Shown here piece after piece: positions 44,332 to 45,328 of a stretch of 64,000 nucleotides of DNA; position 1 is the first letter of the stretch; each line of letters opens with the position of its first letter. The DNA comes from Escherichia coli. GTDB lineage: Bacteria > Pseudomonadota > Gammaproteobacteria > Enterobacterales > Enterobacteriaceae. Under the pieces are notes generated by a model. That model was not told where the DNA came from and searched no databases. It saw only the letters and a list, made by a program, of their open reading frames with translations. A program made the position numbers and the translations under genes. The stretch is taken from NCBI RefSeq assembly GCF_051903065.1, contig NZ_CP178438.1. One strand, written 5' to 3'.

Positions 44332-44539
44332 TTTGCCCTTCTGTAGCCATCACCAGAGCCAAACCGATTAGATTCAATGTGATCTATTTGTTTGCTATAT
44401 CTTAAATTTGCCTTTTGTAAAGGCCATCTCTCGTTTATTTACTTGTGTTAGTAAATGATGGTGCTTGCATATATACATGGCGAATTAATGGATATTGCAA
44501 ATGTAATATTCACAGGGATCACTGGGTAATGACTCCAAC

Positions 44540-45043
44540 TTATTGATAGTGTTTTATGTTCAGATAATGCCCGATGACTTTGTCATGCAGCTCCACCGAT
44601 TTTGAGAACGACAGCGACTTCCGTCCCAGCCGTGCCAGGTGCTGCCTCAGATTCAGGTTATGCCGCTCAATTCGCTGCGTATATCGCTTGCTGATTACGT
44701 GCAGCTTTCCCTTCAGGCGGGATTCATACAGCGGCCAGCCATCCGTCATCCATATCACCACGTCAAAGGGTGACAGCAGGCTCATAAGACGCCCCAGCGT
44801 CGCCATAGTGCGTTCACCGAATACGTGCGCAACAACCGTCTTCCGGAGCCTGTCATACGCGTAAAACAGCCAGCGCTGGCGCGATTTAGCCCCGACATAG
44901 CCCCACTGTTCGTCCATTTCCGCGCAGACGATGACGTCACTGCCCGGCTGTATGCGCGAGGTTACCGACTGCGGCCTGAGTTTTTTAAGTGACGTAAAAT
45001 CGTGTTGAGGCCAACGCCCATAATGCGGGCTGTTGCCCGGCAT
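44540..45043 (-). CDS. insB: IS1 InsB (transposase made as InsAB by frameshift)
   Basis: 167-aa ORF overlapping the insA 3' end in the -1 frame. Confidence 0.93.
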
Positions 45044-45237
45044 CCAACGCCATTCATGGCCATATCAATGATTTTCTGGTGCGTACCGGGTTGAGAAGCG
45101 GTGTAAGTGAACTGCAGTTGCCATGTTTTACGGCAGTGAGAGCAGAGATAGCGCTGATGTCCGGCGGTGCTTTTGCCGTTACGCACCACCCCGTCAGTAG
45201 CTGAACAGGAGGGACAGCTGATAGAAACAGAAGCCAC
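44962..45237 (-). CDS. insA: IS1 InsA
   Basis: 91-aa [42 protein letters not shown].. Confidence 0.93.
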
Positions 45238-45328
45238 TGGAGCACCTCAAAAACACCATCATACACTAAATCAGTAAGTTGGCAGCATCACCGGATCACT
45301 GTAATTAAAATAAATGAAGGATTATGTA

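Follow-up and report, generated by a model that had tools for sequence, protein, structure and literature searches.

The tryptophanase operon described here lies in a stretch of Escherichia coli DNA of 64,000 nucleotides (the window), where tnaC, tnaA and tnaB follow one another on the + strand in the standard tnaCAB layout, with a 220-nt tnaC-tnaA spacer once an inserted copy of IS1 is subtracted. A candidate tna promoter upstream of tnaC (TTCAGA-18-TATTAT, 44192-44221, + strand) was recognized as a consensus match only; its position, 36 bp upstream of the tnaC ATG, fits, and it is unaffected by the insertion. The leader peptide gene tnaC (44257-44331, + strand) is intact, with 24 codons that encode MNILHICVTSKWFNIDNKIVDHRP up to the stop codon, and it is annotated as WP_001364348.1 in the identical locus of E. 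coli 23CRST027. Both structural genes are also intact. Tryptophanase, the 471-aa product of tnaA (45329-46744, + strand), matches TIGR02617 at 1007.9 bits (cut-off 825.8) and has the conservative replacement D221E as its sole departure from the commonest E. coli allele, and the low-affinity tryptophan permease encoded by tnaB (46835-48082, + strand; 415 aa) matches NF007235 at 924.9 bits (cut-off 497).

When tryptophan is available, it stalls the ribosome at the tnaC stop codon, where the adjacent rut site is shielded and Rho termination in the spacer does not take place (PMC12360218). The spacer also holds a binding region for ribosomal protein L4 (PMC7186457) and another for the small RNA Spot42 (PMC5748587). 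The promoter-proximal part of the spacer (44332-44515, + strand), which comprises the Rho loading and pause region and the L4 and Spot42 target region (PMC12360218, PMC7186457, PMC5748587), is now apart from tnaA. The spacer is undisturbed over its first 193 nt, and the C/G ratio, a crude proxy for Rho loading when high, is 1.6-1.8 over 44283-44412, the native rut region. The last 27 nt (45302-45328, + strand) remain attached to tnaA, carry the Shine-Dalgarno sequence AAGGA at 45317-45321, and are identical in all uninterrupted loci compared. A search of 43800-45500 for structured RNA families returned no Rfam match at the gathering score.

Between mnmE and tnaC lies an open reading frame of 725 aa (41696-43873, - strand), with a GC content of 36% against 49% for the window. 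It is annotated in RefSeq as a type III effector toxin of the ShET2/EspL2 family and had no NCBIfam match at E<=0.001. Many E. coli are missing this gene and have mnmE abutting tnaC, and the segment looks like a small accessory island beside the tna promoter.

The element in the spacer is a complete IS1 of the IS1A type (44525-45292, - strand), exactly 768 bp long, with its transposase genes antisense to tna; the original prediction had described a full-length, antisense IS1 with both terminal inverted repeats in the tnaC-tnaA spacer, and this is what the sequence contains. It starts with GGTAATGACTCCAACTTATTGAT directly after the left target duplication and ends with ATCAGTAAGTTGGCAGCATCACC at 45292. 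Its terminal inverted repeats, as delimited by a repeat finder, are 23 nt long and imperfect (78% complementary); the right repeat (IRR, 44525-44547) faces tnaC and the left repeat (IRL, 45270-45292) adjoins tnaA. In IRL, a relaxed scan picked out an outward -35-like hexamer, TTGGCA, at 45279-45284. As IS1 is antisense to tna, its own inward-reading promoter in IRL (CTGCCA-16-TATGAT by consensus scan, 45258-45285, - strand) transcribes away from tnaA.

Both transposase frames are open on the - strand, namely insA (44962-45237; 91 aa), for the zinc-finger repressor and N-terminal transposase part, and insB' (44540-45043), for the catalytic part of the InsAB' transposase. They are joined by a programmed -1 frameshift motif, TTAAAAAAC (44980-44988, - strand), and the RefSeq entry for the identical IS1 copy in 23CRST027 carries the label "programmed frameshift". 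InsB' scores 145.6 bits against the NCBIfam model transpos_IS1 (NF033558; cut-off 100) over model positions 75-199, while InsA covers positions 1-81 of that model and scores 41 bits against IS1_IS1595_Zn (cut-off 28). The copy is 100% identical to annotated IS1A copies in 23CRST027 and STEC384, and identity to 23 annotated IS1 copies is 93-100% across all 768 bp. In length, repeats, insA/insB' organization, A6C -1 frameshift, 9-bp duplication and AT-rich target it matches the IS1 family of E. coli and Shigella, and it shows no difference from the standard family. The window contains no second IS1 copy.

The element is flanked by direct repeats of GGATCACTG at 44516-44524 and 45293-45301 that are 100% identical and spaced 777 from start to start, as had been claimed when an intact 9-bp target-site duplication was proposed. 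The chance of a given 9-mer abutting both ends is about 4^-9, or 4e-6. When IS1 and one repeat copy are deleted, the canonical 220-nt spacer (GC content 33%) is restored with a single GGATCACTG, and a single GGATCACTG stands at the same place in 14 further E. coli loci whose 3' spacer is uninterrupted. The original prediction gave 27 bp as the distance from the insertion to the tnaA ATG, which is correct for the end of the right-hand duplication; the IS1 terminus itself lies 36 bp from the ATG. These positions agree with the further claim that antisense IS1 cuts tnaA and tnaB off from the promoter, tnaC and the Rho-dependent attenuator. The native spacer and the inner end of IRL share a 19-nt inverted repeat, 84% complementary, formed by 44448-44466 (TTAGTAAATGATGGTGCTT) and 45251-45269; it is probably a chance match, and it could pair across the whole IS1 on a read-through transcript.

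Other occurrences of the insertion were sought in 5,426 complete E. coli genomes, in which IS1 was queried in either orientation and the junctions were then mapped. The insertion was found with 100% identical junctions in two of these, 23CRST027 and 23CRST031, both from human faeces in Santo Domingo, Ecuador. Across 53.5 kb the window runs collinear with 23CRST027, and only two SNPs set them apart, at 10996 (G versus A) and at 42271 (C versus T; within the ShET2-like gene), which indicates that the window comes from a third, very close relative of 23CRST027 and 23CRST031. The empty site is present in ECNB21-M121, where a single alignment covers 2,078 bp at 100% identity.

The identical allele in two genomes and the identical empty site establish that the insertion is real, derived and recent; an IS1-rich lineage has undergone a true, recent transposition. 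The relatively recent date that had been proposed agrees with the identical empty site, the restriction of the allele to 2 of 5,426 genomes, the 100% identity of the element to another IS1A and the intact state of tnaA and tnaB. Misassembly or a chimeric join at a repeated IS1, the circumstance named at the outset as one that would undo the claim, has a next to negligible probability. IS1 is multicopy in this lineage, with 37 places on the 23CRST027 chromosome, and multicopy elements are the usual cause of misjoins; against this, the 9-bp duplication is perfect and its sequence is single-copy in the 14 uninterrupted loci, the flanks on both sides are the collinear tna spacer, and the window shares its exact junctions with two independent complete assemblies. 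An artefact was discarded on the strength of the perfect duplication, the shared junctions and the identical empty site.

Classically, insertions of IS1 are strongly polar in both orientations, and this polarity is relieved in rho mutants. Untranslated RNA generally exposes transcripts to Rho-dependent polarity (PMC12360218). Over 44569-44958 the C/G ratio of the antisense IS1 RNA is 1.25-1.6, close to that of the native rut region, and the only sizeable + strand open reading frame in this C-rich stretch (44574-44864) lacks an evident Shine-Dalgarno sequence. The recent transposition set a complete, still functional IS1A in the 3' part of the tnaC-tnaA spacer and pushed tnaA a further 777 bp away from an intact tna promoter, an intact tnaC and the intact native region of Rho loading and pausing. 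In the proposed mechanism, a transcript that got past the attenuator would next have to traverse antisense IS1 RNA, 768 nt that are not translated and of which about 400 nt are C-rich and G-poor. The stalled ribosome would cover only the rut site beside the tnaC stop codon, leaving Rho free to bind the IS1 RNA and to terminate inside it, short of tnaA, with or without tryptophan. The outcome would be a strong polar drop in tnaA-tnaB expression with tryptophan induction lost or blunted, and the strain would be weak-indole or indole-negative with its structural genes still intact.

Since the IS1 RNA lies too far away for the stalled-ribosome shield, Rho polarity should lower tnaA-tnaB expression and blunt its tryptophan induction, and termination in IS1 regardless of tryptophan should leave that expression low and poorly inducible. 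Lowered tnaA-tnaB expression with blunted induction, possibly to the point of an indole-negative phenotype, is the preferred reading, with a probability of roughly 0.65. The reduced or deregulated tryptophanase expression suggested by the original prediction fits the known tna mechanism (PMC12360218) and the Shigella IS precedent as it is cited in PMC12795559. Several points speak against this reading. The IRL end beside tnaA holds the outward TTGGCA, with weak -10 candidates beyond it, and a high C/G ratio is but a crude proxy for Rho loading. The Kovacs test is sensitive, and residual read-through could score as indole-positive; tnaA and tnaB show no decay, but the insertion is too young for this to be informative. 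A literature search found no phenotype or publication for 23CRST027 or 23CRST031, and a search for papers linking IS1, tnaA and indole-negative E. coli turned up only one on experimental evolution, which contains no relevant allele.

The insertion could also be largely neutral, with read-through across IS1 keeping tnaA-tnaB tryptophan-inducible at near wild-type levels. In its favour, no tna regulatory element has been damaged, nor has the tnaA ribosome-binding site, and IS1 holds no convincing + strand intrinsic terminator, only one weak 5-bp stem at 45152-45166 where 1.1 are expected by chance. This outcome is nevertheless rather improbable, given that the insertion lengthens the untranslated RNA by 768 nt, including a long C>G stretch, and the classical polarity of IS1 speaks against it as well. 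Moreover, the sole protection of the leader from Rho is local (PMC12360218).

A different kind of deregulation would follow if IS1 supplied a new start for tnaA-tnaB, either from the outward -35 of IRL together with a -10 in the flanking sequence or from some other IS1-internal site. The IS1 terminal repeat holds an outward -35 box (PMC8764528), which can yield a hybrid promoter when a -10 lies at the right distance; examples formed by IS1 are on record (PMC8764528; Prentki 1986, listed in PMC9330008). The new promoter would lie about 15-25 nt ahead of the tnaA ribosome-binding site and would drive tnaA-tnaB constitutively at some level, free of CRP-cAMP, tryptophan, TnaC and the spacer L4 and Spot42 sites; transcripts starting in or after IS1 would lack the L4 and Spot42 regions. 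TTGGCA at 45279-45284 fits the consensus at five of six positions and ends 8 bp from the IS1 end, and the relaxed scan offered two weak -10 partners, TGTAAT at a spacer of 15 and TG-n-AATTAA at a spacer of 18.

These partners are defective, however, as TGTAAT lacks the near-essential A at -11 and stands at a 15-bp spacer, and AATTAA lacks the T at -7. With consensus thresholds at their standard setting, the scan gave no + strand promoter either within IS1 or at its junction with tnaA, and neither the standard nor the relaxed scan found a -10 with A at -11 and T at -7 located 16-18 bp downstream of TTGGCA. A strong hybrid or outward promoter at the junction was accordingly rejected as a candidate. 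In a published set of three IS1 insertions upstream of a gene, only one raised transcription (PMC8764528). Constitutive rewiring of tnaA-tnaB is considered unlikely.

Of the 5,426 complete genomes, about 30 have IS1 in or beside the tna locus, and the insertions in the spacer fall at three sites relative to the tnaA ATG: -36 to -28 (the window allele), -60/-61 to -53 (four events) and -96 to -88 (the 1506D011 clone). The four events at the middle site, all antisense to tna, comprise 2024CK-00474 (8-bp duplication), USMARC-51688 (8-bp duplication and a different flank allele), E70 (9-bp duplication and a 94.5% IS1 variant) and 300081, which has the same right junction with the tna promoter and tnaC deleted. 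In the loci compared they are found in L002, L003, L004 (1801-2568) and L015 (1502-2269), and the window equivalent of the target is approximately 44491-44499. These are unrelated strains with differing flank alleles and IS1 variants that share one 8-9-bp target, and -61 to -53 has the look of a local hot spot for IS1, located 25 bp upstream of the window site. Three matches (H13, H14 and H17) had been candidates for the same insertion as that in the window with a diverged IS1, and were set aside when mapping placed them at -60/-61 to -53.

All six independent spacer insertions (in the window and in loci L001-L004, L010 and L015) are antisense to tna, with IRL beside tnaA, and a sense-oriented IS1 in the spacer was found in none of the nine genomes matched by the opposite-orientation search. 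This bias is weak statistically (two-sided binomial p = 0.03) and comes from a biased sample; it could reflect target bias, selection or chance. The shared orientation, together with the intact tnaA and tnaB in all six cases, speaks for rewiring by an outward promoter, although the -10 candidates lie at differing spacers (15, 18 and 19) across the insertion sites. An extension of the same idea, in which the 3' third of the spacer is a recurrent, orientation-specific landing zone where IS1 insertions are kept for rewiring tryptophanase and not for killing it, is held to be very doubtful. If it were true, it would describe a repeated natural route to constitutive low-level indole, free of catabolite repression, TnaC/Rho, L4 and Spot42.

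Several further IS1 insertions at the locus lie outside the spacer. Positions +65 to +73 of tnaA have been hit twice independently, in opposite orientations, in CUPF06 and H1827/12 (L009 1915-2682 and L018 1427-2194), and a AAAATTCT target about 150 bp upstream of tnaC has likewise been used independently and in opposite orientations in N61 and isolate 131 (L007 1501-2268 and L023 1001-1768). In E1 and 23CRST009, IS1 elements lie five bp apart near the tnaA 3' end (+1282 to +1295). A sense-oriented tnaA::IS1 at +139 to +147, with the duplication TTATCGATT, is present in K-12 DTU-1 and one W3110 stock (L021 and L022) and in GM4792 (H35 and H36); as it is common to several K-12 laboratory derivatives, some common laboratory stocks should be tryptophanase-negative. 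Five loci, one of them the 300081 locus counted among the spacer events, in K-12 AB1157 (L014), 300081 (L015), AH65 (L016), GPEC1446 (L013) and UID2309220007 (L012), are taken to be IS1-adjacent deletions because they have no target duplication and one flank is gone. In AB1157 the deletion took out tnaA together with the 5' part of tnaB, and in GPEC1446 it removed the 5' end of tnaC.

Production of indole is one of the main tests by which E. coli is identified, and as a signal indole influences virulence, the formation of biofilms and tolerance to drugs. If Rho polarity acts as proposed, a strain whose intact tnaA is cut off from its leader could score as indole-negative or atypical, and a prediction from gene presence would call it indole-positive, a caveat for genome-based phenotype prediction. 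The insertion is otherwise routine IS1 turnover in an IS1-rich lineage. The IS1 and the tnaCAB operon are both standard, interruption of tna by an IS is a known kind of event, and the insertion is already annotated in two RefSeq genomes. Of wider interest is only that IS1 has entered the spacer repeatedly, and in one orientation, in unrelated E. coli, a pattern that could mark a hot spot for insertion or selection acting on how tna is regulated.

Three groups of known systems offer comparisons. The IS1 hybrid promoters (Prentki et al. 1986; afaA in ST131, PMC8764528; blaTEM-6 and acrEF), so far as these sources describe them, likewise place an outward -35-like hexamer near a downstream gene; in contrast to these, no properly spaced consensus -10 follows TTGGCA in the window, and IS1 at afaA has the same orientation as the activated gene (PMC8764528), whereas in the window it is opposite to tnaA. 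IS elements are also reported to underlie indole-negative Shigella (Rezwan et al. 2004, J Bacteriol 186:7460, as cited in PMC12795559 and PMC8537960). As those citing accounts present it, the IS in Shigella likewise lies inside the tnaCAB transcription unit, and the expected outcome is likewise loss of indole. Here, by contrast, an E. coli of faecal origin carries the IS in a non-coding spacer, with its structural genes left unharmed.

The proposed mechanism has a parallel in the classical polar IS1 insertions in gal and lac, in which IS1 between a promoter and its distal genes likewise exposes untranslated RNA to Rho. Unlike in gal and lac, the IS in the window lies downstream of a natural Rho-dependent attenuator with a purely local, tryptophan-controlled shield, and because that shield would not extend over the IS1 RNA, the level and the inducibility of tnaA-tnaB expression should both be affected.
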